Assembly (NCBI GenBank): GCA_964345075.1
Contig: CAYFPS010000005.1
Location: 96,103-160,102, forward strand
Source of the DNA: an uncultured Bacteroidaceae bacterium
GTDB lineage: Bacteria > CAIWAD01
Direction: 5' to 3'
DNA length: 64,000 nt
Part shown: in pieces, positions 22,380 through 41,150 of the stretch
Numbering within the stretch: the stretch's first letter is position 1
Layout of the letters: each line of letters opens with the position of its first letter
Notes under the pieces: generated by a model
Seen by the model: only the letters and a program-made list of their open reading frames with translations
Told to the model about the DNA's origin: nothing
Databases searched by the model: none
Position numbers and translations under genes: made by a program

Positions 22380-22591
22380 AATCTCCGCGTCATGCCGATG
22401 TGTCGGCTGAGTGTTACCTATGTTCCCGGTCAGATGTGTAACCTATGTACCCGGTCTGTACTAAGTCGTCAGCAGGCCAGATACCAGTAACGAGTAGCCA
22501 GCTCAGAGCCGACAGGCGTTAGGCGTCAGCAGGCCAGCAAACTTCTGACTTGTATCTGGAAACTGGTAGCTGGAGGCTAGTTGATTGAAAA

Positions 22592-22800
22592 GTGCCAGAC
22601 ACGTGCCAGACGGGTGTCTGGCACCCGTTGGACACCCGCCTCGAAGCAACTCCCTTCTGTCAATCAGTCCTGACACTTCAGCAACCGCTGTTCCCGACAG
22701 AGTTCCCGACTGCCCCCCGCTTCCGCGGGGGTGACGTCGCTGACCGCTAAGGCCTGACGACTTTCTGACTGGCCTGCTGGTACCTGGATACTGGTAACTG
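22592..22800 (+). repeat. Intergenic repeat element, copy 2 (its palindrome has one substitution)
   Basis: It shares the AGTGCCAGACACGTGCCAGAC...CCTGACACTTCAGCAACCGC...GACTTTCTGACTGG segments with copies 1 and 3. Confidence 0.8.
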
Positions 22801-22877
22801 AAACGACTCTCTTGCTGGGAGCTCGTTGCTGGCCCCTGGTAACTGATTCCTGACGCCTCTCCTCTATAAGCTATCTC

Positions 22878-23234
22878 CTACGCCAATCCCAGCACCATCA
22901 CAAGTGCTCGTCTGACCTTGACCATCTCTTCATCAGTCAGCACAGCGAGTGGTCCGTCCACCAGGCGCGAGCGGTCCAGTGTGCGGGGCTGGTCGGCCAG
23001 AATGATGCTGGGTTTCAGCAGTCGGTCTCGGGCGGGCAAGGGCACATGCAGCAATCCATTCGAGCCGGGCTCAACCCTGCTGCTAAGTGGCAGGACGGCA
23101 ATCAGCGGTGTTGCCTCTGGGCCAAGCCAGTCCGCCTGAATGACCAGAGCAGGGCGAATCTTTCCTGTTTCCTGACCGCGGCTGGGATTAAAGTTGGCCA
23201 GCCAGATTTCGCCGCGACGCATCAACTCCACCAC
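22878..23234 (-). CDS. mazF: MazF/PemK-family endoribonuclease toxin
   Basis: RGEIWLANFNPSRGQETGKIRPALVIQ matches the PemK/MazF N-terminal signature. Confidence 0.75.
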   Translation of the reverse strand: MVELMRRGEIWLANFNPSRGQETGKIRPALVIQADWLGPEATPLIAVLPLSSRVEPGSNGLLHVPLPARDRLLKPSIILADQPRTLDRSRLVDGPLAVLTDEEMVKVRRALVMVLGLA

Positions 23235-23482
23235 GGCTCTTCGGTAGTATCAAGACCATCGCCCAGTGCTGCATCAAGCCAATCTTCAGGCCTGTCACCA
23301 GTGTCTTGGGCGTAGCGTGCCTGTGCTTCGGCCAGCATTCCCTGCTGAAGTTCCTGCCTGCGGCTCTCCTTCAAAAACCGGATTAGGGCAAGCCTGATCA
23401 GGGCCGATCGGTTGATTCCCCGCCGGTTTGCCTCTTCATCAAGTAGCTGCTCAAGCTCCTTGTTAAGGCGAAGGGTTAGCAT
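23222..23482 (-). CDS. Ribbon-helix-helix (CopG/MazE-like) antitoxin
   Basis: RGINRSALIRLAL RHH motif. It overlaps the downstream mazF by 13 bp. Confidence 0.65.
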   Translation of the reverse strand: MLTLRLNKELEQLLDEEANRRGINRSALIRLALIRFLKESRRQELQQGMLAEAQARYAQDTGDRPEDWLDAALGDGLDTTEEPWWS

Positions 23483-23734
23483 GGTTCACCTCCTGTCTTG
23501 CCATTTGTAATACTAATTGTAATACAATGCAAGAGGAAGGGTTTTGGGCGTTAGGCGCTCAGGCGTTAGTCGTCAGCAGGCCATTTGTCACCCCCTGTCA
23601 TTCCCTGTCACCCCCGCGAAAGCGGGGGGCAAGCGAGAAGAAAGCAGGTGCCAGTTTCCAGCAACCTGCCTTACTGGCAGCTGGAAGCTGGTAACTGGGG
23701 GCTGAGTGTATCTGTGTTATGATTTCGCATATGA

Positions 23735-23958
23735 AAAGTGCCAGACACGTGCCAGACACGTGTCTGGCACCGAAGGCCCCCGCTGTCAACGAGTCCTGAC
23801 ACTTCAGCAACCGCAGTTCCCGATTGCGTTATTCGAAATCGTCCAAGCCCCATGACACCCCGCGGCTTCACTTGCGGCTTGCAACCGCCTAACGACTAAC
23901 GCCCGACGACTTTCTGACTGGTACCTGGAAGCTGGTAACTGGCTACTTCTTCAGGCTA
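23735..23958 (+). repeat. Intergenic repeat element, copy 3 (perfect palindrome at 23748-23765)
   Basis: Near-identical to copy 1 over about 220 bp. Confidence 0.85.
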
Positions 23959-24025
23959 ACGACTACAATAACGCCCCCCCCACCAGCAGGTGAGAGGGGC
24001 CATGGTGTGTGACTGACGCCGCGAA

Positions 24026-26803
24026 CTATTCTTCGACGTAATCCTGCACCTTGGGTTGGTAGAACTGCAAGAGCACTCCACCCAGGTAGCCGATTGCGCC
24101 GGAGCCGTAATCGAAGTTGGCGTAGTTCGGGGCCTCGCCGCGATGCACCATGTGCAGGGGCATGGCGTTGAAGGCCGTGCGGAAGTTCGTGTAATAGGGA
24201 TTCAAGCCCTGTCCCATGAAGCTTCCTTCGTAAGCCAGACTTTCGGTGTAGCAGCTGATCGGCTTGCGATGCTTCTCCAGAATCGGCTGCCACTCCACAT
24301 CCACCAGCACCGTGTCGCCGGCGGCCCAGTATTCGGCCGGGTCGTTGATACGCTGATGCTCGACATGAATGAAGGTCTTCTCGCGACCGGCTACCGTCAG
24401 CGAGACCACCTCGCGCGGAAGGGCCCACATGGAGTCGGGACGGCTGGCATTGTGCGCGTCAAAGGCGGCCAGAATCTCGGCACCCCAATAGTTCTGGGCA
24501 ACGGTCGGAATGTAGAGCCAGCAACCCGTCGCGCTGGGTTCCGGCGTGTAGGCCGGGAACCAGGGATCCTGGCCCGGATAGTTGACATCATCCGTCGTAT
24601 AGAAGATGGCCGGCAGATCGGTGGCCCGTGCTACTCGATAGAAGTCAAAGGTCGTCTCTTCATCCAGCCCTGTCGAGTAGCTGTCGTAAGTATGAGTAGC
24701 AATCGTACCCAGACCTTCGTTGATGGCAAAGGCTTCCACAAAGACAGCAGCCGAGTCTGGCGGATTCCAGCGGTAGGGGAAAGGCGCGCTCGGCTCGTAG
24801 AAGCTGTTGTAGCCCGTTGTCAAGCGCAGGCTGTCCACCATCGCCCGGTCCATCACCATGCCCGGCGTGCCTTCGTAAATCGGATCTGCGGCAAGACAAC
24901 CGTCCAGACGACCGAAGAAGAAGGTGGTGTTGTCATCACCATAGACGCTGCTGACACCCATGTAACGCTCAAGGAAGTCACCGGCCTTGTCGGCAAGGAA
25001 AGCACCCGTGTCTTCACCATTGGAATAGTTGAAGGTACCGCGCAGGCTGCTGTAACCTGTCCACAGCAGGCTGCCGCCCATGTCCAGATAGTCCATGGCG
25101 AAGGCCTTCCAGGTCAGGCGCACCTGCGTATAACTAGTGCCGGCGCCCGAACCCTGCGCCCACTTGTCATCAATCACGATGACCGTGCGGTACTGGCTGA
25201 TCACGGAGAAAGGCAGGAGATAGGTGTAAGGATCATCCATATCATCCTGATTGGCCTCAATCCACCAGTAACGGCAATTGTAATCTTCAGGCGAGTCGTG
25301 CATCCAGCTGACCTCGTAGGCAGCATCTTCGCCCACCGTGGCCTTGACCTGCGGCATCAGCTCTTCCAGCATGTCCAGATAGTATTCACGGTGATCCTGA
25401 TCCGAGTCGAAACCCAGATTGCTCGCGCCGGGAGGCGTAAGGTTCATCACCAGCAGGTCGCGCTCCATCGTGACTTCCTGCACCTTGAAGCGCATCCATG
25501 CAGGCTCGGCGCAGCGCTCGAGGCCGTCGTCGCGGCTCCAGACCGTCAACTGATAGAAGCCCGTGGGCAGGTTATAAAGCTCGATCTGGTTGAAGCTGGA
25601 CCAGTATTCATCGTTGAATTCCTGGTCTTCAAAATCGACCACATTGTCTTCGGAAAGCGTCACGCGAACACTGTCCATTTCCATGACCTGCGTACCCAGA
25701 TCCGTGTCCTCTGTCTCTGCGGCCATCCACTCATCCACCAGGCTGTCCGGAATGCGGTGCAGCAGATACTGGAACTCAAGCGGAATCGTCACCAGCGCCT
25801 GATCGTCAGGATCGTCGCCGGAAACCAGGAAGCGCAGACCGCTCCAGTTGACCAGCGGATCTTCGTTGATCGGGATCTCATAATAAGGGCTCACATTGGT
25901 GCGCAGCTGATTGACCACGGAAGGATCGGTGAAGATGTCTTCGTAACCGATGATGTGGCGCTGGTACTCACCCGGCTGCGAGACCTGAGCGTAACCATCC
26001 TTGTAGTAGGCGATCTTCGGGCTGTTGGGCGCGCGGTTCGAACGGTTGAAGGTTCGCATGGCCGCGCTGGAAACAGCACCGTCATTGTCAATGGCCTGAA
26101 CAAAGACCACGTGACGCTGAATCCTGCCCAGGCTGGTGGTCAGGTTGATCGAGGTCTGCGTATTGACCGTTTCCGTCCACTGGATGGTCGGGTCGTTCTG
26201 TTCCACGCGCTGAATGAACTCGGAGACTTCGCAGTCCTCCTCGTCACAGGCGAAATCGTAGTAGCGATAGCTTTCCACAAAGCCGTCCGCATCACTGCCG
26301 CGCCAGAAGATCATCGGCGCGTAGGAGAAGACCGGCGTATAGCGGAAGCTGCCGGAAATGCGATAGAGCTTGCCCAGCTCCCAGGCGAAATCGTCCGTGT
26401 GCTGAATCCACAGATAGCGGGCCACATTCGGATCAATTTCATAGGCATCAGCCGGCACCACCGTCTCCGCACCCGTTGCCGGATCGACTTCAACGATCTG
26501 GTTGATGCCTTCTATAAAGAAGTACTGATAGCGGATCAGCTCGTAGCGGGCCAGCAGATTGGCTTCGCTGGGCATGTTCTGGTTTTCGTCCTCCTCAAAG
26601 CCCTGCAGGGAGTCGGGGAAGATGAAGGAGTAGTCGTCGATCTCATAGATCGTCGTGACGCTGTCGGCATCCTGCTGGTTGTTCACGAAGCTCACTGAGG
26701 GAGCCTGGTTTGCAGAAATCTCGCCATCAATCGTGCTGCAGCCCATGGCCAGCAGCAGGGCGAAAACAGCCGTCACGCTGAAGAAGATTCGTGTGCGCTT
26801 CAT
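24026..26803 (-). CDS. Large lipoprotein of unknown function (925 aa)
   Basis: Lipobox LLAMGC. It is the last gene of a tightly packed five-gene minus-strand operon. Confidence 0.55.
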   Translation of the reverse strand: MKRTRIFFSVTAVFALLLAMGCSTIDGEISANQAPSVSFVNNQQDADSVTTIYEIDDYSFIFPDSLQGFEEDENQNMPSEANLLARYELIRYQYFFIEGINQIVEVDPATGAETVVPADAYEIDPNVARYLWIQHTDDFAWELGKLYRISGSFRYTPVFSYAPMIFWRGSDADGFVESYRYYDFACDEEDCEVSEFIQRVEQNDPTIQWTETVNTQTSINLTTSLGRIQRHVVFVQAIDNDGAVSSAAMRTFNRSNRAPNSPKIAYYKDGYAQVSQPGEYQRHIIGYEDIFTDPSVVNQLRTNVSPYYEIPINEDPLVNWSGLRFLVSGDDPDDQALVTIPLEFQYLLHRIPDSLVDEWMAAETEDTDLGTQVMEMDSVRVTLSEDNVVDFEDQEFNDEYWSSFNQIELYNLPTGFYQLTVWSRDDGLERCAEPAWMRFKVQEVTMERDLLVMNLTPPGASNLGFDSDQDHREYYLDMLEELMPQVKATVGEDAAYEVSWMHDSPEDYNCRYWWIEANQDDMDDPYTYLLPFSVISQYRTVIVIDDKWAQGSGAGTSYTQVRLTWKAFAMDYLDMGGSLLWTGYSSLRGTFNYSNGEDTGAFLADKAGDFLERYMGVSSVYGDDNTTFFFGRLDGCLAADPIYEGTPGMVMDRAMVDSLRLTTGYNSFYEPSAPFPYRWNPPDSAAVFVEAFAINEGLGTIATHTYDSYSTGLDEETTFDFYRVARATDLPAIFYTTDDVNYPGQDPWFPAYTPEPSATGCWLYIPTVAQNYWGAEILAAFDAHNASRPDSMWALPREVVSLTVAGREKTFIHVEHQRINDPAEYWAAGDTVLVDVEWQPILEKHRKPISCYTESLAYEGSFMGQGLNPYYTNFRTAFNAMPLHMVHRGEAPNYANFDYGSGAIGYLGGVLLQFYQPKVQDYVEE

Positions 26804-26804
26804 T

Positions 26805-27800
26805 CTAACGGCTCCAGCTGAGGGTGATCATGTTGCGGCCTTCCAGATAGCGCGAAGGTGCGTAGGCATAGTCAAAGACAAAGCTGCCCATGCTGGACTC
26901 GAACTTGAAGCCCGCGCCCACGCCCAGTCCGTCGGAGGAAAGCAGAGGATACTCATAGCCGGCTTCGGGATCGTAATCTTCCCATTCGGTCTCGCTCACG
27001 GCATTCATCTTCTTGCCCATTCGCAGGAAGAAGCGATCGCGGAAGGCGTATTCGAGGCCGACATTGATGAACTCGACATTATCCGAAGGATGACCGAATT
27101 CAAAAGTACCGGTCAGGAAGTGATCGTCGGTCTTGACGCCGTAAAGATCCATCGCCATGCCGAAGCGGAACATGATGGGAATCGGATACTCTTCCTCGAT
27201 GAAGGACATGTCCGGGCCGAAGTTGGAGATGATCATCGCCATGCGCAGGCTGCGCCAGCCGGTATCATAATAGGTACCGACATCGGCCGCCCAACCCGTG
27301 GCGTCGATTTCCATCGTGCTTTCCTGCAGGTACTTCATCGTGATGCCGGCGCTGAACTTGTTGGTCAGGCGGCGGGCATAACTGAAGCCCAGAGCAAAAT
27401 CCTGATAGTCGAACTCGCGACCCGTGCCCATGGGGCGCAGGGGCGTGGTTTCTTCCATCATGCCGGAATTGAGGTAGGTAACGCTGACACCCCAGGCGCT
27501 GCCGTCTTCGGGATTGCCCTTGGCAACACCGATCCACTCCTGATTGATGTCCACCCACATGGCGTGATGACTGAAGGAGGCCTGCCAGCCGTCCAGCAGC
27601 GTCAGGCCCGCCGGGTTGTAGTACAGGGCGCTGGCATCATCGGCCATCGGCAGCATGGCATCGGCCAAAGCCATGCCGCGCGCGCTGACGCCAATCTTGA
27701 GGAACTGGGCGCCCGCCGTTCCTGACTTCACCTGTGCTTCGGCAAGCTGATTCACACCAAGGGCAAGAACCAGAGCCAGCATCCATCGCATTGCTTTCAT
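26805..27800 (-). CDS. PorV/LptO-like (FadL-like) outer-membrane beta-barrel, T9SS-associated
   Basis: Signal peptide plus an N-terminal GTAGAQFLKIGVSARGMALADAMLPMADDASALYYNPAGL signature of the PorV / UPF0164 family. Beta-barrel-like alternating pattern ending ...ITLSWSR. Confidence 0.45.
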   Translation of the reverse strand: MKAMRWMLALVLALGVNQLAEAQVKSGTAGAQFLKIGVSARGMALADAMLPMADDASALYYNPAGLTLLDGWQASFSHHAMWVDINQEWIGVAKGNPEDGSAWGVSVTYLNSGMMEETTPLRPMGTGREFDYQDFALGFSYARRLTNKFSAGITMKYLQESTMEIDATGWAADVGTYYDTGWRSLRMAMIISNFGPDMSFIEEEYPIPIMFRFGMAMDLYGVKTDDHFLTGTFEFGHPSDNVEFINVGLEYAFRDRFFLRMGKKMNAVSETEWEDYDPEAGYEYPLLSSDGLGVGAGFKFESSMGSFVFDYAYAPSRYLEGRNMITLSWSR

Positions 27801-27815
27801 TGTGCTCCTCCTGCC

Positions 27816-30800
27816 CTACTTGATGATCACGAACTTGCCAGTGGAAATGGAACCGGCGCTTCCGCTGGTCCAGTCTTCCACACTGAAGACGTACAGGCCG
27901 CTAGCCGCCTGCTGGAAGTTACGCGTGTTCAGGTCCCAGTGCTCACTGTAGAGCGCCTGCCAGCGGCTGCGATCGCCTTCGAGGTTGTGCGGCAGAATCT
28001 GAACCAGATCACCGGCAACCGTGTAGATGCGAATCACTGCCTGCTCGGGCAGGTTGATGAACTCGATACGGCGATCCTGCTGATCGTACCAGTCGCGGGT
28101 TCCGTCATCCTGGTTTTCCCACTGCAGTCCCTGCTCCGAGTTGCCAAAGTTGTAGGCGTAGGCCTCGTAGTTGGCGTCGGCACGGTAGGGATTAGGCACC
28201 ACGGCCACCTTGCGTCCTGGCACGCCCGACGGGGCCTGACGGATCGCGTTGCAGCTCATGGCCGTTTCCAGCGGCTCGGTACCTGTCTGGTAATCGCCAA
28301 AGTCATAGGCGGAAACGGAATAGTAGCGCGGGAAGAGGCTGTGTACGTCGCGCACGCGGTAGCGGAACTCGACATCGTAATCGCCCTTGTCCCAGACATT
28401 GTTGTACTCGCCGGCGTTGTCGCTTTCGTCCAGGAAGCGCTCGCCCAGAACAATGATGTCGTCGGCGCTGAACAGTCGGCCACTGGCGGGATCGGCCTGA
28501 TTGCCATCCTCGTGGAAGACCTGCGTGCCATCAGCCAGATAGTACTCGTATGTACCGCTCATGCTGCGTACGGCAACGGCCGCGTTGTAAGCGTTGATCT
28601 GGAAGTCGTAGCCACGGCCGCTGCTGACCCAGTAATCCTCGTTGATGTCCAGCAGGATGGCTTCCTGCGGCTCGCCGATCGGTAGGGCAATATCAAGGAA
28701 GCCCGTGTTGTTGCCCACCGGCTGACGCTCGTAACCGAGGTTGGTCTCGCGCATGGGCAGGCTTTCCAGCGGACCGAAGTCCGGCTGGGTGCGCAGCGAG
28801 TTTTCGCCATCGAAGTAGGCGAAGTTGACATTATCGAACTGCTCAAGCAGGGAATATTCGTTGTCCTGGCTCGTGTTCGAAACCCAGATGCGATAGCCTT
28901 CAAAGTCCTGCACCTGGCTGAAAGGATCGCGATAGCTTTCCGCCATGGAATTACGCGTCCAGACCAGCTCGACGAAGTCTTCGCCCGTCTCGATGGTCAG
29001 GTCAGGACAGGGCGGTGGCGGCGGACCCTGGAAGTCGGGAATACCGTCACCCTTGTCGAGGAAGCCATTGTTGTTGAAGTGGCCGACATACCAGTCTTCC
29101 CTGTTGCCTTCGGAGAACTTGGGACCGGCATAAATCAGGAAGCTGTCTTCGCGCATTTCCTGGAAGCCCAGTGTTTCCCAGAGGAAGCCCCAGAGGAAAT
29201 CGTCTTCGTTGAAGCGGCCGCCCCAGACTTCGCTGGAAAGGGTTGAATCGATCAGGCCATTGCCTTCCGTGCCGTCCTCGTCAGGGCCATTGTAGATGGC
29301 GGGCTGACCGTTCGGCAGGTAGACGATCTGTCCGAAATACTCGACCGTATCGCCCACAGCCGGCGCCCAGAGGCCGTCCAGGCCGACATCCTCGCCGCCC
29401 CAGCCGTCACCCTTGTCGTACCAGCCGTCACCGTCGGTGTCGTAGATCGGCGTGTCGTACATCTCGTTGTCATAGACGCGCTGGGCCCAGATGGCGTTGA
29501 AGTCGAAGTCGGTCCAGACAAACTTGTCAGCGTCAATCGCCCCGGCATTCGTGCCCGTAATGTTGGTCTGCGGGTTGCTGCGGTCATGCAGGTTCTCGCC
29601 AGCCACAAAGGCCACCGTCATGGTGAAGCTCTCACCCGGATTCAGGCGGAAAACATTGAAGCCGCTGGCATCGGTGTAGTCAAAGACGCCCAGCGGACCC
29701 CAGGAAAGCAGGTAGCGGGTGTCGTCACCTTCCAGGTTGGGGCTTTCATTGGCACCGGGAGCCAGCCAGCTCATGGAATCCTGCAGGGTGGGGTTCCACT
29801 GCGGGGAGGGCATGTTGCCCGGATCGATCAGGTACATGTCCGGATCGAACTCGCCATTGGCCAGCAGCTGATACTTGTGAAGATCGGCGTCGGGCGTACC
29901 CAGAATCGAGGTCCAGGTCAGGTTCTGGCCACCGATGGTGACTTCCGGATGCTGGCCCCAGTATTCCCAGGCCGGTCCGTAATCCTGATCGGCATTTCCG
30001 TTGGAATTCCACCAGTTGAAGGTGGTGGTCAGCATCGGATTGGGTGCACGCAGGACGCGGGTTCCCACCACATGGGGGCAGGTGAAGTTCGTTCCAACCA
30101 GATCGTTATGCTCGCGGCCGTCGTTGTCGGCAATGTAGGCGGCGTTGATCTGCACCTTCTGGCCGGTCACGGAATCCACGGCAAACTGGCGGAATCCGCA
30201 GAAGTCATCGGTGTGATGATTGTCCTCATCCTTGTGACCAACATCGCCGTCCATGTAAAGGCCGACATAGAGGTTCTTGAGGAACTTGGAGCCGACATTG
30301 GTCAGCTTGTAGTCAACAATGATGAAGTCCTGCGCGTAGCTGTAGGACCAGCTATGGCTGATCTGCTCGATTTCCACACCCAGGCTGATATGGTTGTTAT
30401 CAGGCGCATCGTAGGATTCGTTGACCAGGCCCAGATTTTCCAGCGTGTCCGAGAAGAGCGCGTAAAAGTCCTGCTCGGAGACCGAAAGGCTGTCGTAAAT
30501 ATCCGACAGATCCAGACAGGACTTGGCGTTCAGGCGCGTGGAGGTCTCGATGATCTCGCCATCGACACCGCAGCTCGGGAAAAGCTCGGCGCCGCCGTCC
30601 CAGCCTTCGAAGCCCACGGAAACACGCGGCGTCTCCAGACCGGAATCATCAACAATCAAGGCACCGACCCAGATGGCACCAACAAACAGGTACTGCTGGC
30701 CGGTACCGCCGGGATACTCCATCTGGGGTGCCCAGACACCATCCAGACAAGGATCCACCTGATCGTCGTCATTTCCAACCCATCCCGAGTTGGTGAAGTT

Positions 30801-30983
30801 TGCCCACATCTTGCCAAATCGGTGGACACGATTGAGCTGGTTTGGAATGCAGATATCAACCTGCTGCTCACTGTCCGGGTTCTTGATCGCTTCCTGGGGC
30901 GCGCCAGAGGTAGCGGCCCAGGCACTACTGCTCGCCATGGTGGCCAGCGTAAGCGCGCATAGCAGCTTGCCGGTGTGTTTCAT
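27816..30983 (-). CDS. Large secreted T9SS cargo protein (unknown function)
   Basis: Signal peptide MKHTGKLLCALTLATMASSSAWA. The C-terminus (WDLNTRNFQQAASGLYVFSVED...KFVIIK) is a T9SS CTD. Confidence 0.6.
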   Translation of the reverse strand: MKHTGKLLCALTLATMASSSAWAATSGAPQEAIKNPDSEQQVDICIPNQLNRVHRFGKMWANFTNSGWVGNDDDQVDPCLDGVWAPQMEYPGGTGQQYLFVGAIWVGALIVDDSGLETPRVSVGFEGWDGGAELFPSCGVDGEIIETSTRLNAKSCLDLSDIYDSLSVSEQDFYALFSDTLENLGLVNESYDAPDNNHISLGVEIEQISHSWSYSYAQDFIIVDYKLTNVGSKFLKNLYVGLYMDGDVGHKDEDNHHTDDFCGFRQFAVDSVTGQKVQINAAYIADNDGREHNDLVGTNFTCPHVVGTRVLRAPNPMLTTTFNWWNSNGNADQDYGPAWEYWGQHPEVTIGGQNLTWTSILGTPDADLHKYQLLANGEFDPDMYLIDPGNMPSPQWNPTLQDSMSWLAPGANESPNLEGDDTRYLLSWGPLGVFDYTDASGFNVFRLNPGESFTMTVAFVAGENLHDRSNPQTNITGTNAGAIDADKFVWTDFDFNAIWAQRVYDNEMYDTPIYDTDGDGWYDKGDGWGGEDVGLDGLWAPAVGDTVEYFGQIVYLPNGQPAIYNGPDEDGTEGNGLIDSTLSSEVWGGRFNEDDFLWGFLWETLGFQEMREDSFLIYAGPKFSEGNREDWYVGHFNNNGFLDKGDGIPDFQGPPPPPCPDLTIETGEDFVELVWTRNSMAESYRDPFSQVQDFEGYRIWVSNTSQDNEYSLLEQFDNVNFAYFDGENSLRTQPDFGPLESLPMRETNLGYERQPVGNNTGFLDIALPIGEPQEAILLDINEDYWVSSGRGYDFQINAYNAAVAVRSMSGTYEYYLADGTQVFHEDGNQADPASGRLFSADDIIVLGERFLDESDNAGEYNNVWDKGDYDVEFRYRVRDVHSLFPRYYSVSAYDFGDYQTGTEPLETAMSCNAIRQAPSGVPGRKVAVVPNPYRADANYEAYAYNFGNSEQGLQWENQDDGTRDWYDQQDRRIEFINLPEQAVIRIYTVAGDLVQILPHNLEGDRSRWQALYSEHWDLNTRNFQQAASGLYVFSVEDWTSGSAGSISTGKFVIIK

Positions 30984-31018
30984 ACAGCTACCCTTCATCA
31001 ATTCCAGATCTTGGGCTA

Positions 31019-33601
31019 TCATTCAGTCACCTCAATGTCAAAGCTCGCGCGCGTCTCCAGCGCCTGATCCTCATCATCAGGATCATCGGTCACGGTCAGG
31101 CTCACACGCAAGGTTCCGACAAAACCATCAAAGGTCTCGACGGTTACCAGGTTGCCATCAAGGGTAAGCGTATGACCATCATCGCCGCCAGAAACAACAA
31201 TCAGCTCGGCGACAAGCGACAGGCCATCGCCTTCCACATCGCTAATCTCAATCTCGCGGCTGAAGGTATCGCCTGTGACAATCGTCGCGTCCGGCTGCTC
31301 GGCAAAGACAGGTGCGTCATTGACCGAGCGGAAAGTAACCGTGACGGTCTCTTCGTCCATGCCTTCGCTGTTGCTGGCGCTGACGGTCAGGCTCGCGCTG
31401 CCGAACCAGTTGGCTGCAGGGTTGAGCATCAGGTGGCGACCGTCCAGAACCACTTCCAGGTTCTCTTCGTCCGTCGTGGCCGTAAAGGTGAAGTCATTGT
31501 CACCGCCGAAGCTCAGCGCGTTCAGCCAGAGCTCGATGGGCAGGTCTTCATTACTTACCAGGCTGCCGATGGAACCCAGCATCGGGCCGGGATTGTCAAT
31601 CTGGCCCGCACCCCAACCGATGGCCCGGCTGCCGCCCGCTTCGCAGTCTTCGATGCTGCCGCCAAAGGCATAACCGGCACCCAGCGTTACCTGGGTGAAG
31701 TCGTTGCATTCGCCAACATTCCAGTTGGTGGGCATGGCGGCCATGTCATCGCCACCATTGCCGGAGAACCAGTTGACATTGACATCGGGATTGTTGGTGT
31801 CCAGCAATTCACCCAGCGTGGTACCGACGATGCCGGTGGCAATTTCGCTGCCGGAAAAATCGTTGTCGGCGATCAGGTTGTAGCGAATCAGCGGATCGCA
31901 GTTGGCATCCAGCTTGATGCCGCCATAGCCGTTGCCGGCGATGGTGTTCTGCAAAATTTCCACGCCGGGGGCGTCGTGCAGCTTGATGCCGTACTGCTGG
32001 CCACCGGCCACCAGATTGTTCTCGATCTGCGAGAAGTAATCGGTGTTGTAGAAGTAGATGCCGTAGGTGCCAAAGCCCTGGATGTCGCAACCGGAAATGC
32101 GGCCACGAGCGCCGTAGGACATGTAGACCGCAGAAAGGCCCGAGTCACTGAAATCGCAGTCGATCACATTCAGCATGCTGCCGGCGCCACTGGCACTGAC
32201 GCCGTGGCTGTTGGAGTTGCTGAAGCTGCAGTTCTCGACGACAGCCGTAGCACCAGATCGCAGTTCGATCATGCCACCGGCGTTGATCCAGTCCTGACCA
32301 CTGTAGGAGCTTTCGCTACCCAGCGCGAAGTCGCAGTTGGCAAAGTGGGCCGTGCCGCCGTTTTCGCCGTTCACCACCACGCTCTTCCAGGCCGCACCGA
32401 TCTGGCGGTCCGCCGTGGGGCCGAAGTGGCTGTTTTCGGCAACCACGCCACCATCGAAATTCAGGCCATAATAACCGGCAAACTCGACGGTCGAGCTGCT
32501 GAGGGTGACGGGATCGTGGCTGAAGGCATCACAGGTCACCGTGTAAACGGCGTTACCCAGATCGGGATTCTTGATGCGCTTGCGCAGCTCGTTGGCCGCC
32601 TGATTGTAGACGATGGGGCCCACATCCGTGCGCTCGCCGTTGGTGCCATAATCAAAGGCCGTCTGAATGCAGGGGCTGCAGGAATTGAAGGCCTGCGCGT
32701 CCGCCTCGAGCTGGTCGAACTGGGCGTCTTCAATCGAGTTGGCGAAGAGGTCCACCTTGTCATTGGCTTCGTTGCGGCGATAAACTTCATCGCCGTTCAG
32801 GTCGAAACCGATGACATCCACACCCAGCGAATAAGCATCCACATCCACCGTATCCGTATCCCAGGGCTGATGGAACTGGGCGACGGCAAAGTCCGTCGAA
32901 TAGCGGAAAGGCAGGCTGCTGTTGGCACTGACATTGTTGTGCACGATCAGGCTGTCGGAAAGCCAGCCCTCGATGCGGGTCGTGTTGCCCACATGGGTCG
33001 TGTCAAAAACGATGCCCGATCCGTCGTTCTCATAAATGATGTTCGAGCGAATCAGTGGCGTAGCCGTACCCTGCAGGGTGATGCCGTTGTACTGGTTCAG
33101 CCAGATCAGGCAGTGCTCGATCAGCGGGCTGGAATTGGTGCAGGTAACGGCAGCCGTCTTTTCCGGATCCGTGTTGTTGAACTTGGAACCGAAAGCGACC
33201 ATGGCGTAGCGCATGCTGGAAGCATCGCTGCCCTCGCGGAAAACGATACCCTGCCAGAGGCCGTAGTCCTCGTCCAGCTCGTAGCCCAGGAAGCGAACCA
33301 TCGAGCCCAGCTGTCCACGCACATCCAGCGTGCCTTCGACAAAGAGGCTGGTCAGGTTGTTCATGTAGACATCCACGCCGGCTTCAATCACCAGTGTCTG
33401 GCCAGCCGGAACCGTAATGTCGCCGGAAACGAAGTAGGGTGAACCCGCCATGTTCCAGGTGCCACTGACGCTGCCTGATGCAACTTCCGTGGTGTAGGCG
33501 CGGGTGACCACAACCTCGTCCCGCGAACTGGTCGTGCTGTCATCACAGGCAACCAGGAAGATCAGCAGGGTCACCGCGATCAGATTGATATAGGTCTTCA
33601 T
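31019..33601 (-). CDS. Lipoprotein with right-handed parallel beta-helix (PbH1) repeats and a C-terminal cadherin/VCBS-like domain
   Basis: Lipobox LVAC. Repetitive NxxxGN/GI beta-helix rungs (NNLVAGGQQYGIKLHD..., QNTIAGNGYGGIKLD...). Confidence 0.55.
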   Translation of the reverse strand: MKTYINLIAVTLLIFLVACDDSTTSSRDEVVVTRAYTTEVASGSVSGTWNMAGSPYFVSGDITVPAGQTLVIEAGVDVYMNNLTSLFVEGTLDVRGQLGSMVRFLGYELDEDYGLWQGIVFREGSDASSMRYAMVAFGSKFNNTDPEKTAAVTCTNSSPLIEHCLIWLNQYNGITLQGTATPLIRSNIIYENDGSGIVFDTTHVGNTTRIEGWLSDSLIVHNNVSANSSLPFRYSTDFAVAQFHQPWDTDTVDVDAYSLGVDVIGFDLNGDEVYRRNEANDKVDLFANSIEDAQFDQLEADAQAFNSCSPCIQTAFDYGTNGERTDVGPIVYNQAANELRKRIKNPDLGNAVYTVTCDAFSHDPVTLSSSTVEFAGYYGLNFDGGVVAENSHFGPTADRQIGAAWKSVVVNGENGGTAHFANCDFALGSESSYSGQDWINAGGMIELRSGATAVVENCSFSNSNSHGVSASGAGSMLNVIDCDFSDSGLSAVYMSYGARGRISGCDIQGFGTYGIYFYNTDYFSQIENNLVAGGQQYGIKLHDAPGVEILQNTIAGNGYGGIKLDANCDPLIRYNLIADNDFSGSEIATGIVGTTLGELLDTNNPDVNVNWFSGNGGDDMAAMPTNWNVGECNDFTQVTLGAGYAFGGSIEDCEAGGSRAIGWGAGQIDNPGPMLGSIGSLVSNEDLPIELWLNALSFGGDNDFTFTATTDEENLEVVLDGRHLMLNPAANWFGSASLTVSASNSEGMDEETVTVTFRSVNDAPVFAEQPDATIVTGDTFSREIEISDVEGDGLSLVAELIVVSGGDDGHTLTLDGNLVTVETFDGFVGTLRVSLTVTDDPDDEDQALETRASFDIEVTE

Positions 33602-33613
33602 CGATGCTCCCCG

Positions 33614-36600
33614 CTAGAACTTGTAGCCGATCTTCAGCAGCACATTGCGTCCGGCGCTGTACATGCGCGGATTGGCGTCATAAACACCCTTCTCCGGGTA
33701 GTAGAGCACATAGTCCGGATTTTCAGGATGCATGGCCAGATAGGTGCTGCCCGTGGCCGAGTAAAGGTCACGCACGTTGCGCTTGTTGAAGAGATTCTTG
33801 ATCTCCACACCCGTCACCAGCTGGTGCTGGCCGGATCCGCCCAGACGGAAGTACTTCTCGAACTTCATGTCGGTCTTTTCCGTCCAGGGCATGCGCTCGG
33901 AGTTGATATCGATCTTCGCATCGTTGTCCACATCCTCCGTGTAGCGGGAAGGCGTGTAGGGCCGGCCGCTACCGAAGGCGGTGGAAACACTCAGCATCCA
34001 GTCGTCAAAGAGCTTGATGCCGAAGAGTTCCAGGTGCTCGCCCTTGTCGTAGTAGAGGGCCGTGTAGGCGTTGATGCTGTGGGTCTGGTCCCAGCCCAGC
34101 GGATGCTCTTCACGGTTGACCGGCACACCGGCCACGCGGGCTTCAGCAGCCTCGGTGGCGGCAGAGGCCTTACCGTAAGCAAAGCTCAGCTCGTAGTTCA
34201 GCGACATGCTGTAGTGGGCGGCGGCCTTCTCGACATTCAGGCTGACGCCACGGGCGCGGCCATAGTCACCATTGGTGTAGATGTCGATGGTGTAACCGGG
34301 AGTCACTTCCACATTGGTGGAGGTCACCTGATCGAAAATGTCGCGGTAATAACCCTGCACGTTGATGGTCGTGCCCCAGTCCGGAATGCGGGCCTCGACA
34401 CCAAACTGGTACTCGACCGTCTTCTCGTACTTGAGGTTCGGGTTACCCACAATAATGCTGTTGGCACGGGCACCGGTAGCTTCCTGGTAGTAGTACTGGT
34501 AGCTGGGCGCCTGATAGAAGTGACCGTAGTTGAAGTAGAGCTTGGCCGTTTCCGTAATAGGATGGCTGATACCCAGACGCGGGCTGAAGCGACCGGTGGT
34601 CTGCTCGGCCTCGATGGCACCCGGATAACCGGCATTGGCTTCATCGCGCGTTTCGCTGACGAAGTTGTCTTCGTGAATCAGGAAGTCGTAGCGCAGGCCG
34701 ATCAGAACATTCAGTCCCTCGAACTCCATCTTGTCGCGGAAGTAAACAGCGCCTTCCCACGGCTTCCGGTGATAGAAGTCACGGAAGTTACCACGATCGG
34801 GATAGGGGCTGTCATCCGGCAGCGGAATAAAGCCGTCGTAGGGGATCTGCGGTTCTTCAATGGACTGCATTTCCATGTCGCGGTAAAGCAGCTCCACGCC
34901 GGTCAGAAGGTCGTGGTAGCGGTTGGCCTGCAGCTGATACTCGGTCTTGAGCGAGTAGGTGATGGAACGACGCTCCTGCCACAGGGCCTGCGTGTCAAAG
35001 GTCTCAGGATTCAGGAAGAAGTCGTAGTTGCCTTCCTGACCATACTGGGCACCCCAGTCGGCGAGGAATGCCGAATTCTGGGACAAGCCACCATCCTGCA
35101 CGCCATTGGCATTGTAGTCGGTAAAGGGCTCCCACTCTTCCCAGGTGGTGTTGGGCGGATCGAAGTAGCTGCCACCCAGCATGGCCGACATTTCCGGATT
35201 GTCACTGCGGTTACTCCAGGTAGCCTCGGCCGCCTGCTGATAGAGAGCCGCACCGGTGGGCCAGTCTGCGCCGTTCATGGCGGGATTGAAATTGTAAATC
35301 ACGGGACGACTTACATCCATCACGCTGCCCTGGAAGTGGGCATTGTCAATCAGGTCCTGCGGGACACCGGCGATATCGCGCACGCCGCCATCACGCTCGG
35401 TGGGATTGCCACCGGTCACAGAGGAAGGATTGAAGTAGAAGGGGTCCACCATGAAACCGGCATAGCTGGTGAACAATTCGTACTCATCGAACTCGAAGTC
35501 GGGTCCGTCATAATGGCCGTTCAGACCGGGCTCGGGCATGGGCACGCTGGGATCGCCACGACGCAACCAGCGCATGAAGGCACCTTCCGTTGAGGGCAGA
35601 TCGAAATAGATCTCGCCTTCATCCCAGATGCCGTTGTACTGGCCGGTGAGCGGATCGGGCTCATCGATAAAGGGCTCGCCCGTATCCCAGAAATAGTCAC
35701 CATCAACAAAGGGCTCGGGCAGGTCTTCATCCGTGTCGCGCACGTCCTTGAAGTTGATGCGGCCGTCGCCATTGATGTCGTCATAACCTTCGGCCATGAC
35801 AATGCCGTCGCCATCCGAGTCCACCAGCGGCTCGCCCAGATCCCAGACACCGTTGCCGTTCAGGTCTTCAAAGTCGTCGATCCAGCCGTTCCAGACACCG
35901 TCGCCGTTCACATCCTGGAAGCGCTCGCCGTCCCAGTGACCGTTGTGATTGGTGTCCTGCTCGGGGGTCTGCGGCTCGGCATCGTCCCAGCGGCCGTTGC
36001 CGTTCATGTCCACATAGGAATCCCAGGGATCGTAACCGGGATTGTTTTCGCCGGTGGTGGGATTGGGCAGATTGACATAGGGCTCGGCGGCATCGTAGAC
36101 ACCGTTGCCGTTCAGGTCCACCCAGTCTTCGCCACGATCCCACATACCATTACGGTTAATGTCTTCGTAGCCTTCCGAGAAAATCGGGTTGCCGTTTTCG
36201 TCGTAGTAGAAGCCATCGTAGGCGCCACTGTTGTTGGCGTCCACATAACCGTCGAAGTAGCCGTTGCCATCCAGATCCTGGAAGCCGAGGAAGGCTGCCT
36301 TGTCGTCTTCCTGCGCGCGCTCCTGGCTGGAGAATTCGAGCATGAAGTCATCGGGATTGCGGTCGGCCGGCGTAATCAGCGTGCGGGTTTCGCTGCGGTA
36401 AAGCACCGCCTCGAAACTCGACTGCTCGCTTAAGGCGGTCGTGTAGGTCAGCGAGAGGGCGTTACGGTTCACCTCGGCGCGCGGACGATTTCGCACGTTA
36501 TAGAGGTAGGGATAACCGTAGTTGCCGCTGGCCGCACCTTCGCCTTCGGGATAAAGATCCCAGCGGCGATAGTAGCGCTCACCGAAAACCTTGAGCTTGG

Positions 36601-37630
36601 AATTGGCCGTAAGCGGGAAGGCGAGGTTCAGCGAAGCCTGATACTCGTTCTTCTGACGCTCGGGCAGATCCAGACCCAGGTTCAGGTAATTCCAGCTGCC
36701 ACGATCCACATCGTAGGGCAGGTAGGTGTCGGTCAGGTAGGCGCGACCACTGAAGAAGAAGGTGGCCCGGCTGTACTTGTCCTTGCCGCCCTGGAAGGGC
36801 AGCGGACCGCCGTAGGTCACATTCAGATGGTCGGTGTTGAAGCTGAAGGCGTCAATGGCCTGGTCGGTCTGGTACTCGACCTTTCCGTGATAGGCATCGT
36901 TGTCACCCTCACGGGTGGAGACCTTGATCACGGCCGCCTGCGCCTGTCCGTACTCGGGGCCGAAACCACCGGAGAGCACGTCCAGCTGCTCGATGTTGGC
37001 CACGTCCAGGTTGACGAAGCTCTGGCCACCGACCAGCGGATCACGGGCGTCGATACCGTTAATCACGAATTTCGTCTCCGTGTCACGGCCACCGCGGGCG
37101 TGAATCTTGCCTTCGTCATCCAGCTTGAAGCCAGGCATCTTGGCCACGATGTCCGTGGCGTCGGTCGCAACGGCGCGCTCGATTTCCTCGGCGCTCACCG
37201 TCAGCGTCTGACCGGCCTGGTCAAGCTTGATGGCGTCCTTCTTGGCCACCACACGGACCTCTTCCAGCTCGAAGCTGGACTGGGTCAGCTTGATGGCGCC
37301 CAGGTCCGTGTTCAGGTCACGCGTGATCACCACATCGGTGACCGTGATCGTGTGATACAGGACGTGGGTGATTTCCACTTCATACGTGCCGATCGGAACC
37401 TGTGCGATAAAGAAATTACCGTCCAGATCCGTGGCGGCGCCCTTCGCCGGCTGGCTTTCCAGGACAACCACATTGGCACCAATCACCGGCTCGCCGGAGT
37501 TGGCATCAATGATCTTGCCCTTGATTTTTCCCGTGTCCGCTGCATGCAGGTTAGTGGCAAACAGCACCACGGACAGGATCAGCCCAAACCACGAAGGCAG
37601 GTGCAAACGATTCGGGGAGCTACCCTTCAT
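33614..37630 (-). CDS. Giant TonB-dependent receptor (SusC-like: CarbopepD_reg + plug + barrel) with an internal calcium-binding repeat insertion
   Basis: Signal peptide, GKIIDANSGEPVIGANVVV (carboxypeptidase-regulatory-like), plug motifs, and a C-terminal ...LLKIGYKF ending in Phe. The internal DxNGNGxxD / DxDGDG repeats resemble thrombospondin type-3 repeats. Confidence 0.7.
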   Translation of the reverse strand: MKGSSPNRLHLPSWFGLILSVVLFATNLHAADTGKIKGKIIDANSGEPVIGANVVVLESQPAKGAATDLDGNFFIAQVPIGTYEVEITHVLYHTITVTDVVITRDLNTDLGAIKLTQSSFELEEVRVVAKKDAIKLDQAGQTLTVSAEEIERAVATDATDIVAKMPGFKLDDEGKIHARGGRDTETKFVINGIDARDPLVGGQSFVNLDVANIEQLDVLSGGFGPEYGQAQAAVIKVSTREGDNDAYHGKVEYQTDQAIDAFSFNTDHLNVTYGGPLPFQGGKDKYSRATFFFSGRAYLTDTYLPYDVDRGSWNYLNLGLDLPERQKNEYQASLNLAFPLTANSKLKVFGERYYRRWDLYPEGEGAASGNYGYPYLYNVRNRPRAEVNRNALSLTYTTALSEQSSFEAVLYRSETRTLITPADRNPDDFMLEFSSQERAQEDDKAAFLGFQDLDGNGYFDGYVDANNSGAYDGFYYDENGNPIFSEGYEDINRNGMWDRGEDWVDLNGNGVYDAAEPYVNLPNPTTGENNPGYDPWDSYVDMNGNGRWDDAEPQTPEQDTNHNGHWDGERFQDVNGDGVWNGWIDDFEDLNGNGVWDLGEPLVDSDGDGIVMAEGYDDINGDGRINFKDVRDTDEDLPEPFVDGDYFWDTGEPFIDEPDPLTGQYNGIWDEGEIYFDLPSTEGAFMRWLRRGDPSVPMPEPGLNGHYDGPDFEFDEYELFTSYAGFMVDPFYFNPSSVTGGNPTERDGGVRDIAGVPQDLIDNAHFQGSVMDVSRPVIYNFNPAMNGADWPTGAALYQQAAEATWSNRSDNPEMSAMLGGSYFDPPNTTWEEWEPFTDYNANGVQDGGLSQNSAFLADWGAQYGQEGNYDFFLNPETFDTQALWQERRSITYSLKTEYQLQANRYHDLLTGVELLYRDMEMQSIEEPQIPYDGFIPLPDDSPYPDRGNFRDFYHRKPWEGAVYFRDKMEFEGLNVLIGLRYDFLIHEDNFVSETRDEANAGYPGAIEAEQTTGRFSPRLGISHPITETAKLYFNYGHFYQAPSYQYYYQEATGARANSIIVGNPNLKYEKTVEYQFGVEARIPDWGTTINVQGYYRDIFDQVTSTNVEVTPGYTIDIYTNGDYGRARGVSLNVEKAAAHYSMSLNYELSFAYGKASAATEAAEARVAGVPVNREEHPLGWDQTHSINAYTALYYDKGEHLELFGIKLFDDWMLSVSTAFGSGRPYTPSRYTEDVDNDAKIDINSERMPWTEKTDMKFEKYFRLGGSGQHQLVTGVEIKNLFNKRNVRDLYSATGSTYLAMHPENPDYVLYYPEKGVYDANPRMYSAGRNVLLKIGYKF

Positions 37631-37650
37631 TCTGCGCTCCAGTGTCTTCT

Positions 37651-37692
37651 GTTGTAGGAAGAGTGACAAGCAATTTGTCAACCTACCAAAAG
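37651..37692 (-). promoter_or_regulatory. Candidate sigma-70-like promoter of the TBDR operon (-35 TTGACA, 19 bp spacer, -10 TACAAC)
   Basis: Read on the minus strand about 20 nt upstream of the ATG at 37630. The long spacer and weak -10 make this tentative. Confidence 0.25.
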
Positions 37693-37972
37693 CCCATCCT
37701 GAAGTCAAGACAAGGAAGCTTCCAAAACGGAGGCTATCTTGTTGACAATCAATGACTTTGATAAGTTTCGGGTTCCACAGGCCAAGATTGCATATCTCGT
37801 GCCAACTCTCTTGAGCGTAATTATTTTTCACTACCACGGTGTATATTTAATGGATGCAGAGTATTTGGCATGCCTGCCCGGTGCCGGTGCTCACACTTCA
37901 CGTCAAAAAAGCAAAACAGGTGTTGTGGTGAGACTGTCGCGGAAGCTCGAGTGTGTACGGTTTCTTACACCG

Positions 37973-39013
37973 TCACTCCATCTCGCCGCCTTGTGTCCGC
38001 GCTGTCAAATCGCGATAGCGTGTAAAAAGGCTGCGCACGATCTGTTCCTGATCGCCCGGATCCAGATTGCGAAAAACCAGATGCATGCGTGACATGTCAC
38101 GGATTTTGGAGAGATGAAGCAGTTCCGCCTGCAACATGATCTGCCGATTCTGCGCCTGCAGCAGAAAGCCGATGCGCGCCCCGCGTGGAGGAGGATTGCT
38201 GGTAGCAATGGCTGCACCGCTGCCGGAGAGATTGATGATGCGACCGCTCCTGGAATTGAGCTGGCTGGAGTCCACTTCGCCGGGAATCGAGTAGACGCGG
38301 AAATCAACCGGAATATCCACATCCACACGCCAGAATTCGCGCAGCTGCCGAACCTTGAAGGCCCCTTGCTTTGCGTGCTTCAGGATCAGCTCGCCGGGAT
38401 GCGAACGCTCGACCTCGCAGGCGGCGTGATACATGGCTTCCGGACGCGGGTAGTATAGCCCGACTTCCCGTCCGGCCGGCATCAGGGGCATCTGTGATCC
38501 GCGGTTTCCAATGTGGATATGCTGGATTCCGATGGAGGTTACAATGCCGGGAATCACATCCTGCCGGCCCGAGTGATGCACCACAACATTGATGCTGGCA
38601 CCCGGCAACAGATCACGCGTGCTGGCCGGAGCCAGATTACCGGAATGGCTGTGATACAAGGTTTCGTGAATGCGACCAATGGATTCAACCAGCTCCGCAC
38701 TGGGATCGCTCAGCTCGTCCAGACCATCCAGCCAGACATTGAAGAGCGAGGGGTTGCCCAGCAGGCGGTCGGGGTTTTCCGGACAGACATCATCCAGCGC
38801 CCGCTCCACCAGCAGCCAGTCCTTGTTGAGCAGGCCTTCGCGGATATAGCGCCGCTTGAGATTCTTGCGATGGTTGCGGGCCTTCAGGTGTTCGGCGTAA
38901 AGGTGATAGGCAATCGGAAAGAGGATGCTTAAGAGCACGAGCAGGGAAAAAGCAATCACGGCGCCTTCCATCGAAGACCTGAAATGTGATTGAATCTGAT
39001 TCCAGAAGTTCAT
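37973..39013 (-). CDS. Membrane-anchored PilZ-domain protein (putative c-di-GMP receptor)
   Basis: N-terminal transmembrane helix. RQLREFWR ... INLSGSGAAI matches the PilZ RxxxR / DxSxxG motifs. Confidence 0.45.
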   Translation of the reverse strand: MNFWNQIQSHFRSSMEGAVIAFSLLVLLSILFPIAYHLYAEHLKARNHRKNLKRRYIREGLLNKDWLLVERALDDVCPENPDRLLGNPSLFNVWLDGLDELSDPSAELVESIGRIHETLYHSHSGNLAPASTRDLLPGASINVVVHHSGRQDVIPGIVTSIGIQHIHIGNRGSQMPLMPAGREVGLYYPRPEAMYHAACEVERSHPGELILKHAKQGAFKVRQLREFWRVDVDIPVDFRVYSIPGEVDSSQLNSRSGRIINLSGSGAAIATSNPPPRGARIGFLLQAQNRQIMLQAELLHLSKIRDMSRMHLVFRNLDPGDQEQIVRSLFTRYRDLTARTQGGEME

Positions 39014-39075
39014 GCGCCGGACCCGTTTTGCCTACTCTATCGGAGCGCCTCGCAGAAGCTTGATTCACGGAATCG

Positions 39076-41099: not shown

Positions 41100-41150
41100 T
41101 CTTCAGTGAACCTGAAAAGGTAGGATTGAAGCTCTTGCATGGCAAGATGA

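Follow-up and report, generated by a model that had tools for sequence, protein, structure and literature searches.

The locus described here consists of five minus-strand genes at positions 24026 to 37630 of a 64,000-nucleotide stretch of contig CAYFPS010000005.1 from an uncultured bacterium (positions 96,103 to 160,102 of the forward strand; the whole stretch is hereafter called the window), and it can be set against three kinds of outer-membrane assembly that have already been described. In the SusC/SusD utilisomes of Bacteroidota, as in this operon, a TonB-dependent transporter with a CarboxypepD_reg-type domain is encoded first and is followed by surface lipoproteins with the folds of glycan proteins, all within one co-regulated operon; however, the present operon lacks SusD and any recognisable carbohydrate-active enzyme, its transporter reaches 76 bits where the SusC/RagA model demands 368, and, whereas utilisome loci are multi-copy and variable, it is single-copy, conserved across phyla and furnished with a PorV/PorQ-family barrel and a protein resembling, at its end, the C-terminal domain (CTD) of type IX secretion cargo. 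In Porphyromonas gingivalis, PorU and PorZ are type IX secretion system (T9SS) substrates that are kept on the surface by binding the barrels PorV and PorQ (PMC12365241, PMC10947112), and PorF (PG0534) is a TonB-dependent-receptor-like component of the same system whose role is unknown (PMC5445135, PMC10947112). Like the PorQ-PorZ and PorV-PorU pairs, our locus joins a PorV/PorQ-family barrel to a large, putatively surface-bound protein with a CTD-like C-terminal sandwich, probably a retained anchor, and this pairing recurs in paralogues; unlike them, its genes are adjacent and lie inside a transporter operon, its barrel falls under the equivalog cut-offs, its large protein is mutarotase-like and has neither the propellers of PorZ nor the C25 peptidase of PorU, and its hosts lie outside Bacteroidota proper. 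With PorF, which is functionally tied to type IX secretion, it shares, by description, a barrel of TonB-dependent-receptor type, although the transporter of the operon is about 50% longer and carries an insertion of calcium-binding repeats. We propose, giving the idea about an even chance, that the operon encodes one outer-membrane surface complex built around its TonB-dependent transporter, with the large protein anchored through the T9SS, a glycan-type substrate imported and transcription driven by sigma-54.

The five genes form one operon. In transcriptional order they encode the transporter (33614-37630, 1338 amino acids), a beta-helix lipoprotein (31019-33601, 860 amino acids), the large secreted protein that we call p1055 (27816-30983, 1055 amino acids), the barrel (26805-27800, 331 amino acids) and a second lipoprotein, p925 (24026-26803, 925 amino acids), and the successive gaps between the open reading frames are 12, 35, 15 and 1 bp. 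Two of the mechanically called frames are longer at the 5' end, one beginning with a GTG at 37837 and the other with an ATG at 31022, and the start codons of an earlier note on this DNA are backed by signal peptides and by gene calls in relatives. The leader (37631-37972) measures 342 bp and is AT-richer than its surroundings (GC 0.465 versus about 0.58 for the window), with TTGACA at 37681-37676 and TTGACT at 37708-37703, so that the description in that note of five minus-strand genes 1-35 bp apart behind an AT-rich leader with a TTGACA element was borne out. A single, tightly packed transcription unit is likewise upheld by the promoter region upstream and by a GC-rich, terminator-like hairpin on the minus strand (23973-24000, 26 nt past the last stop; a 12-pair stem with nine G-C pairs), nothing comparable being present in the intergenic gaps, where stems reach at most five pairs; a scan of leader and operon against Rfam matched no family. 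All five products carry export signals that are kept in relatives, namely signal peptides in the first, third and fourth and lipoboxes in the second and fifth. Profile searches and lipoboxes also agree with the earlier identification of four of the products (the TonB-dependent transporter, the beta-helix lipoprotein, the barrel of the PorV/PorQ family and the other, large lipoprotein), and none of the five products matches a SusD-type Pfam family, as had been claimed. The products of the third and fifth genes matched no family in Pfam or NCBIfam.

The first product is by its domains a TonB-dependent transporter, for which energised import is predicted. Pfam and inspection of the sequence divide it into a signal peptide, a CarboxypepD_reg domain (2.1e-14), a plug (PF07715, 2.4e-11, residues 206-301) and a barrel (PF00593, 2.2e-25, residues 870-1294), and this succession of plug and barrel behind a signal peptide places it in the transporter class. 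The motifs of the plug are canonical, and a stretch that to the eye resembles a TonB box, LEEVRVVAKK, precedes it. Several hundred residues, from about 440 to about 860, are inserted, with calcium-binding-type repeats of the form DxNGNGxxD at about residues 450-700. The protein is not a SusC/RagA homologue by the standard of the corresponding model, TIGR04056 (which the earlier note had mistaken for a PorV model): the score is 76.2 bits against a cut-off of 368.25, and the match is limited to the N-terminus (residues 35-259 opposite model positions 2-221). Orthologues are 65% identical in L001 (a complete chromosome of 3.7 Mb that carries the label Candidatus Delongbacteria) and 44% identical in LCP-89; no solved structure was matched by sequence.

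The fourth product can be assigned on its sequence to the FadL-like PorV/PorQ family. Against the family model NF033709 it scores 192 bits (2e-56) with a cut-off of 90, over nearly the whole model (residues 28-329 opposite positions 1-324 of 326), and phmmer aligns it with PorV of Flavobacterium johnsoniae (6h3i_F) at an E-value of 1.5e-9. The equivalog cut-offs (NF033710, NF033711) set it apart from both PorV and PorQ proper, with 102.8 bits against 220 for PorQ and 79.1 against 250 for PorV, and it is under the PorV2 cut-off as well (60.7 against 325).

The gene just before that of the barrel encodes p1055, a protein with a signal peptide whose sequence matches no solved structure. Its AlphaFold model (pLDDT 75) predicts a galactose-mutarotase-like beta-supersandwich, an acidic, proline-rich linker GDGIPDFQGPPPPP, FN3/Ig-like domains and a C-terminal beta-sandwich. 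Mean column identity within the family is 47% over 44 sequences from contigs labelled as several candidate phyla, and of the p1055 and p925 families one comprises 565 homologues and the other 309 cluster representatives. The claim of the earlier note that p1055 is a T9SS cargo stands as plausible, in a weaker form than it was made. Aligned with six genuine Por_Secre_tail CTDs, the C-terminus of p1055 runs in register to the last residue, with IRIYTVAGDLV, SGLYLFSVED and GKFVIIK opposite LAVYNLAGQEV, SGVYFYTL and KKMVLVR; six to seven strands are predicted between residues 972 and 1053, and Foldseek returns weak matches to PorU (E 8e-5) and PorZ (E 6e-3). Several results weigh against a cargo function: the Por_Secre_tail models PF18962 and TIGR04183, which do match the PorU-like protein of the same window (2.6e-6), recover neither the whole of p1055 nor its last 130 residues even at E<=10, the CTD assignment thus lies under every curated threshold, and the in-register alignment itself is weak (hhalign P 5.5e-4, probability 30%). 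On balance it is plausible that p1055 ends in a divergent T9SS-type CTD. Paralogues of p1055 in other genomes are also paired with PorV/PorQ-family barrels, independently of the operon. In one of them, L026, a barrel of this family fused to a C-terminal OmpA-type peptidoglycan-binding domain (7977-9761, 594 amino acids; syntenic in L024 and L025) is encoded between the gene for a 2317-residue DUF11-repeat protein and that of a p1055 paralogue, and a solitary paralogue is present in the complete genome OY760505.1.

Both lipoproteins have lipoboxes that are conserved in relatives, that of the beta-helix protein reading LVAC followed by DD. According to Pfam the latter protein folds as a right-handed parallel beta-helix, to which Ig-like (Big_9) domains are joined at the C-terminus (Beta_helix PF13229 2.2e-29, NosD 2.8e-14, Big_9 4.3e-9), the beta-helix being recognised well above gathering scores (PF13229 reaches 102.6 bits in three stretches where 25.9 are required, and NosD 53.5 where the threshold is 23.6), and by sequence it has no homologue among solved structures. 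For p925, modelling predicts N-terminal Ig/FN3-like sandwiches, a central domain resembling class I glutamine amidotransferases (ThuA/GIFT) and a C-terminal sandwich; an exact-sequence look-up of the window's p925 gave no match.

A type IX secretion system is indicated in this organism, the closest named relatives of which carry the label Delongbacteria, because the window also encodes a PorU-like sortase candidate (52504-56082), a 1192-residue Peptidase_C25 protein with a recognisable Por_Secre_tail/FlgD_ig C-terminus, and a cargo protein with a canonical Por_Secre_tail CTD (11479-13293). Under the proposed model p1055 would cross the outer membrane by this pathway and would stay on the surface through its unusually conserved CTD-like domain, bound to the neighbouring PorV/PorQ-family barrel in the way that PorQ holds PorZ and PorV holds PorU; export and retention of this kind are suggested because the CTD-like gene immediately precedes the barrel gene, because the C-terminal domain is well conserved and because paralogues follow the PorV-family-OmpA fusion. 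The two lipoproteins, one a beta-helix and the other combining ThuA/GIFT-like and Ig domains, may join p1055 around the transporter, with which they would share a transcript, and the assembled complex would then most likely capture a glycan-type macromolecule that the plugged, TonB-energised barrel imports, as a counterpart of a utilisome without SusD. The folds suggest this substrate, since parallel beta-helices, mutarotase-like sandwiches, ThuA-like domains and FN3/Ig domains are common in proteins that bind or act on carbohydrates.

Import of a glycan has to be weighed against three points: no catalytic or substrate-binding family was found in any accessory protein, so that the resemblance in fold is to non-catalytic domains; the transporter fails the SusC/RagA cut-off and has no SusD beside it; and strong conservation in single copy is unusual for nutrient-uptake loci and suits a structural or secretion machine better. 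The operon might instead be an accessory module of the T9SS secretion and attachment machinery and not an importer, its barrel and a sugar-binding p1055 acting like PorQ and PorZ in presenting a glycolipid or anchor, its transporter being the counterpart of PorF and its lipoproteins structural partners. That the barrel obtains a better score from the model of PorQ than from that of PorV, that the pairing of p1055-family proteins with such barrels recurs, that p1055 weakly resembles PorU and PorZ in structure, and that a PorU-like sortase and T9SS cargo are encoded in the same window would all fit such a module, as would a single-copy operon conserved above UvrD and the existence of a T9SS component, PG0534/PorF, that is already of TonB-dependent-receptor type. 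Yet PorZ is a double beta-propeller where p1055 is a mutarotase-like sandwich, the barrel stays under both the PorQ and the PorV equivalog cut-offs, and the full, canonical plug of the transporter argues for gated transport, so that we hold this alternative to be unlikely, though deserving of attention.

Another alternative reverses the direction of transport: the complex would export or modify a surface polysaccharide or another macromolecule, together with the products of the PilZ, Wzz/KpsE-like and WbaP-like neighbour genes, its beta-helix and ThuA/PelA-like domains acting on the polymer while the TonB-dependent barrel would act in secretion, like Oar, which serves the secretion of PopC in Myxococcus. 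It is these neighbours that suggest this alternative. The PilZ/Wzz link, however, exists in one lineage only, the five-gene core of LCP-89 and Zixibacteria having other neighbours; no synthase, Wza or flippase gene lies in or beside the operon, and no catalytic residues were identified. We consider export quite improbable, and prefer the import complex described above.

The earlier note had further held the operon to be likely horizontally acquired, a claim that the comparison with related genomes contradicts. A shared gene order, comprising a sigma-54 activator, a Wzz-like protein, a small lipoprotein, a PilZ protein, the five operon genes, yceG, uvrD and a TPR protein, is found in relatives whose p1055 is 97% (L004), 79% (L007), 71% (L005) and 61% (L001) identical to that of the window, and all the relatives recovered (L004, L007, L005, L010, L023 and L001) have the operon at the same locus and in the same order; yceG is still downstream of the operon at about 50% identity. 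Occurrence in relatives is what the earlier note had itself named as contradicting its claim. Between the window and L001 the operon proteins have diverged as much as the flanks or less, with identities of 65% for the transporter, 63% for the PorV/PorQ-family barrel, 61% for p1055 and 44% for both the beta-helix protein and p925, versus 58% for UvrD, 52% for YceG, 49% for the Wzz-like protein and 37% for the PilZ protein, and divergence of operon and flanks is proportional in L005 and L007 also. The GC content of the operon (0.57-0.60) is that of the rest of the window, and its GC content at third codon positions (GC3) follows the flanks in each genome compared, over a range from about 0.55 to 0.83. 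Tests for a genomic island thus returned the same placement in relatives and a composition and divergence in step with the host's flanks. Because of this conserved locus, of flank-proportional divergence, of host-tracking GC3 and of a lack of the octamer discussed below that is conserved in other octamer-rich genomes, the sequence comparisons indicate that the operon is native and vertically inherited and has not been recently acquired.

Recent acquisition as an island, which would also account for the operon being free of the octamer, is consequently a reading that we regard as very improbable indeed. What can be said for it is that a single octamer is found in 13.6 kb where some 17.5 would be expected from the density in the flanks, that in tetranucleotide profile the operon correlates less well with the remainder of the window (0.83-0.91 versus 0.94-0.96) and that toxin-antitoxin genes lie directly downstream. 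Opposed to this, relatives with as little as 61% identity still have the operon between the PilZ gene and yceG, its divergence is proportional to that of the flanks and its composition is host-like; moreover, the atypical tetranucleotide profile goes along with more pronounced codon bias and a distinct amino-acid composition, four or more other octamer-rich genomes, whose flanks acquired the word on their own, also have an operon without it, octamer-free blocks also span housekeeping genes such as those of citrate synthase and malate dehydrogenase, and it is the toxin-antitoxin genes that were inserted, L001 and L007 having none at this site.

The distribution of the operon is wide. A scan of species-representative genomes gave 128 relatives of p1055, and with the five window proteins as tblastn queries about 40 of 89 loci proved to have all five genes in sequence; their labels, from many candidate phyla of the Bacteroidota-related group, include Delongbacteria, LCP-89, Calditrichaeota, KSB1, Zixibacteria, Tariuqbacter and Hatepunaea; at some loci the cluster also holds an inserted protein of about 1440 residues (beta-helix plus Por_Secre_tail) and a small TPR protein. 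In the complete 3.7-Mb genome OY760505.1 only one full operon was detected. A limited literature search returned no paper on this gene cluster, which combines known kinds of part, a TonB-dependent uptake complex and PorV/PorQ-type anchoring, in a wide and apparently undescribed distribution.

The octamer itself, GTGATACA (or TGTATCAC on the opposite strand), is a non-palindromic word of which the window has 51 copies, spread over positions 45 to 55663, where 0.56 would be expected; the two strands carry it about equally, every permitted reading phase is used and no consensus flanks it. The earlier note had described the operon as devoid of it except in the first 280 bp or so of the receptor gene, and our counts agree: the only copy in the operon is at 37352, about 280 bp into the transporter gene, against the roughly 17.5 copies mentioned above, and the empty tract extends beyond the operon, from 20801 to 37351. 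The Poisson probability of the gap is 4.6e-7, a value that overstates its rarity because octamer-free blocks of 9-12 kb are common, accounting in octamer-rich genomes for 38% of the non-operon loci examined (among them L022 1368-10486, L024 12240-22778, L026 13807-22835 and L017 2860-14818). One such block, which three genomes have free of octamers, covers citrate synthase and malate dehydrogenase, and another contains two T9SS cargo genes (Por_Secre_tail/PPC proteins). The octamer is the most frequent 8-mer in L001 and L022 and is abundant in L012, L014, L017 and L024-L026; it is nearly absent from the closer, higher-GC relatives L005, L010 and L023 while being shared by relatives of 50-61% identity. 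As in the window, it is present in both flanks and absent from the operon in L001, L012, L014 and L011, and the operon of L004 lacks it too. In L005 the frequent word CACCAGGG was considered as a dispersed word of this kind and rejected, being an 11-bp tandem array beside a transposase gene.

A sharper comparison is obtained from peptide-compatible sites, that is, sites where the encoded peptide allows the octamer by synonymous changes only. In the window 43 of 56 such sites are occupied in the flanks and 1 of 12 in the operon; the corresponding counts are 10/11 and 0/8 in L001, 4/11 and 0/10 in L012, and 4/7 and 0/6 in L014, so that over the four genomes 61 of 85 flank sites (72%) are filled and only 1 of 36 in the operon (Fisher P 2e-13). 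Solitary p1055 paralogues have six of their seven sites occupied. The filling of 43 of 56 sites in the flanks of the window means that the octamer appears to shape protein sequences there; the 36 available sites in the operons, of which one is used, dispose of amino-acid composition as a barrier. In orthologous flank genes of the window and L001, one octamer position is shared, nine are found only in the window and eight only in L001. Flank octamers are thus mostly private to a lineage, and therefore the word kept arising while the operon stayed empty: the exclusion is continuing, and foreign origin is ruled out as its cause. A single ancient acquisition was rejected on the same ground, lineage-specific positions implying that gain is ongoing. 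The lack of the octamer is a conserved and actively maintained property of the operon, not a foreign trace.

As to what maintains it, the codon data lend weak support to selection tied to strong codon optimisation or high expression. Outside the operon, octamer density in the window drops with rising GC3 (Poisson likelihood-ratio test, P 0.02), genes with a GC3 of at least 0.73 containing one octamer in 6.2 kb, and the GC3 of the operon is the highest in the window. High GC3 was nevertheless rejected as a full explanation, for in L001 and L014 the operon is not above its flanks in GC3 and a paralogue with a GC3 of 0.74 has three octamers. With octamer codons masked, the effective number of codons (Nc) is lower in the operon than in the flanks in the window (36.7 versus 45.1), L001 (46.9 versus 51.2) and L012 (37.1 versus 39.3); in each of the four genomes the operon uses fewer rare arginine codons, and ATA is clearly rarer there in three and about equal in L012. 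Two observations count against the link to codon bias, namely that Nc in L014 does not differ (49.3 in the operon, 49.4 in the flanks) and that a strongly biased paralogue in L022 (Nc 37.8) holds three octamers.

We know of no link between the octamer-bearing organisms and competence, and a limited literature search yielded no paper on this octamer as a genomic motif. The closest described analogues are the DNA uptake sequences (DUS) of Neisseriaceae and Pasteurellaceae and the cyanobacterial HIP1, which, like the octamer, are short words found about once per kb, some 100-fold over-represented, on both strands and in all reading phases, shaping the encoded peptides and spread unevenly among genes (PMC2397512, PMC5861425). 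Unlike them, the octamer is a non-palindromic 8-mer, and it is excluded from a conserved core operon and not from recently acquired or diversifying genes. At the far end of the window the octamer no longer occurs past 55663 and the GC content drops to 0.48-0.54 from about 59 kb onwards, possibly marking a foreign segment at 55664-64000, within which a 759-residue protein with a Por_Secre_tail domain is encoded (59692-61971).

Two candidate promoters lie in the leader, both on the minus strand. The first, TGGCACGAGATATGCA (37789-37804, 174 nt upstream of the transporter ATG), is a putative sigma-54 (-24/-12) element that agrees with the consensus at 11 of 12 specified positions, the criterion being GG-N10-GC with a TGGCAC...TTGC consensus. 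Of 11 loci belonging to this lineage, 7 have such an element upstream of the transporter orthologue, L012 in perfect form (TGGCACGGATTTTGCT), the background rate being 0.018 per 460 nt; among 30 loci of other phyla there is none. The second is a sigma-70-like TTGACT-17 nt-TAGGTT (37680-37708), which overlaps the TTGACA at 37681-37676 and is followed by a conserved 5' leader; a simple consensus scan did not call it, which leaves it a candidate only. We suggest that in this lineage transcription of the operon would start at the sigma-54 promoter and depend on an activator, the sigma-54 enhancer-binding protein whose gene lies 3.5 kb upstream (41151-42809). Less favourable to this suggestion are the absence of the sigma-54 element in L001, its weakness in L007 and the fact that the sigma-70-like element beside it is conserved too, as TTGACT-17-TAGGTT in L004, L007 and L005 and as TTGACT-17-TACTTT in L001.

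The activator gene belongs to a set of co-directional minus-strand neighbours (37973-42809) that were identified with Pfam and NCBIfam and keep their order in L001, L004, L005 and L007: a PilZ protein gene (37973-39013), a gene for a 278-residue lipoprotein (39076-39912), one for a Wzz/KpsE-like polysaccharide co-polymerase (39909-41099) and that of the enhancer-binding protein. They are lineage-specific neighbours, unlinked to the operon in LCP-89 and Zixibacteria. On the downstream side, two toxin-antitoxin-like pairs are located between the operon and yceG (21715-23482), a PIN toxin on the plus strand (21975-22379) with an 87-residue upstream open reading frame and a MazF/PemK toxin on the minus strand (22878-23234) with one of 86 residues; the MazF pair is present at this site in L004. 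Between the operon and the MazF pair there is a 35-nt perfect-repeat palindrome, GGTGCCAGACACGTGTCTGGCACGTGTCTGGCAC (23737-23771), followed by a run of T. At the position of the toxin-antitoxin genes, L005 (17112-18259; also L006) has a gene for an IS200-type Y1 transposase (17495-18133) between two arrays of the 11-bp tandem repeat GCCCTGGTGTY, of about 20 and about 10 copies.

These results bear on how both genomic words and surface complexes are to be read. The lack of a hyper-abundant genomic word is an unsafe marker of horizontal transfer, given that here it marks a native, conserved operon, and if the operon does rank among gene blocks that actively exclude a DUS/HIP1-like octamer, an unknown genome-wide sequence drive with gene-specific immunity would be suggested. 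It is only tentatively, and with less assurance than the import model itself, that we would see in the locus a new outer-membrane machine extending across several phyla, in which a TonB-energised barrel, PorQ/PorZ-like anchoring and two lipoproteins are combined, either as an ancestral utilisome without SusD or as the functional context of PorF-type barrels, and whose operon is at the same time an octamer-excluding block. The p1055 and p925 families, both large and devoid of Pfam or NCBIfam annotation, now have descriptions at the level of predicted folds. Should the proposed complex prove real, uncultured lineages of sediment and subsurface (Delongbacteria, Calditrichota, KSB1, LCP-89, Zixibacteria and others) would share one highly conserved surface complex in which TonB-dependent uptake and type IX secretion or anchoring, usually studied apart in Bacteroidota, are joined, and this would provide a testable partner set for a PorV/PorQ-family barrel outside the canonical attachment complex, together with a candidate context for the TonB-dependent-receptor-like components of the T9SS.

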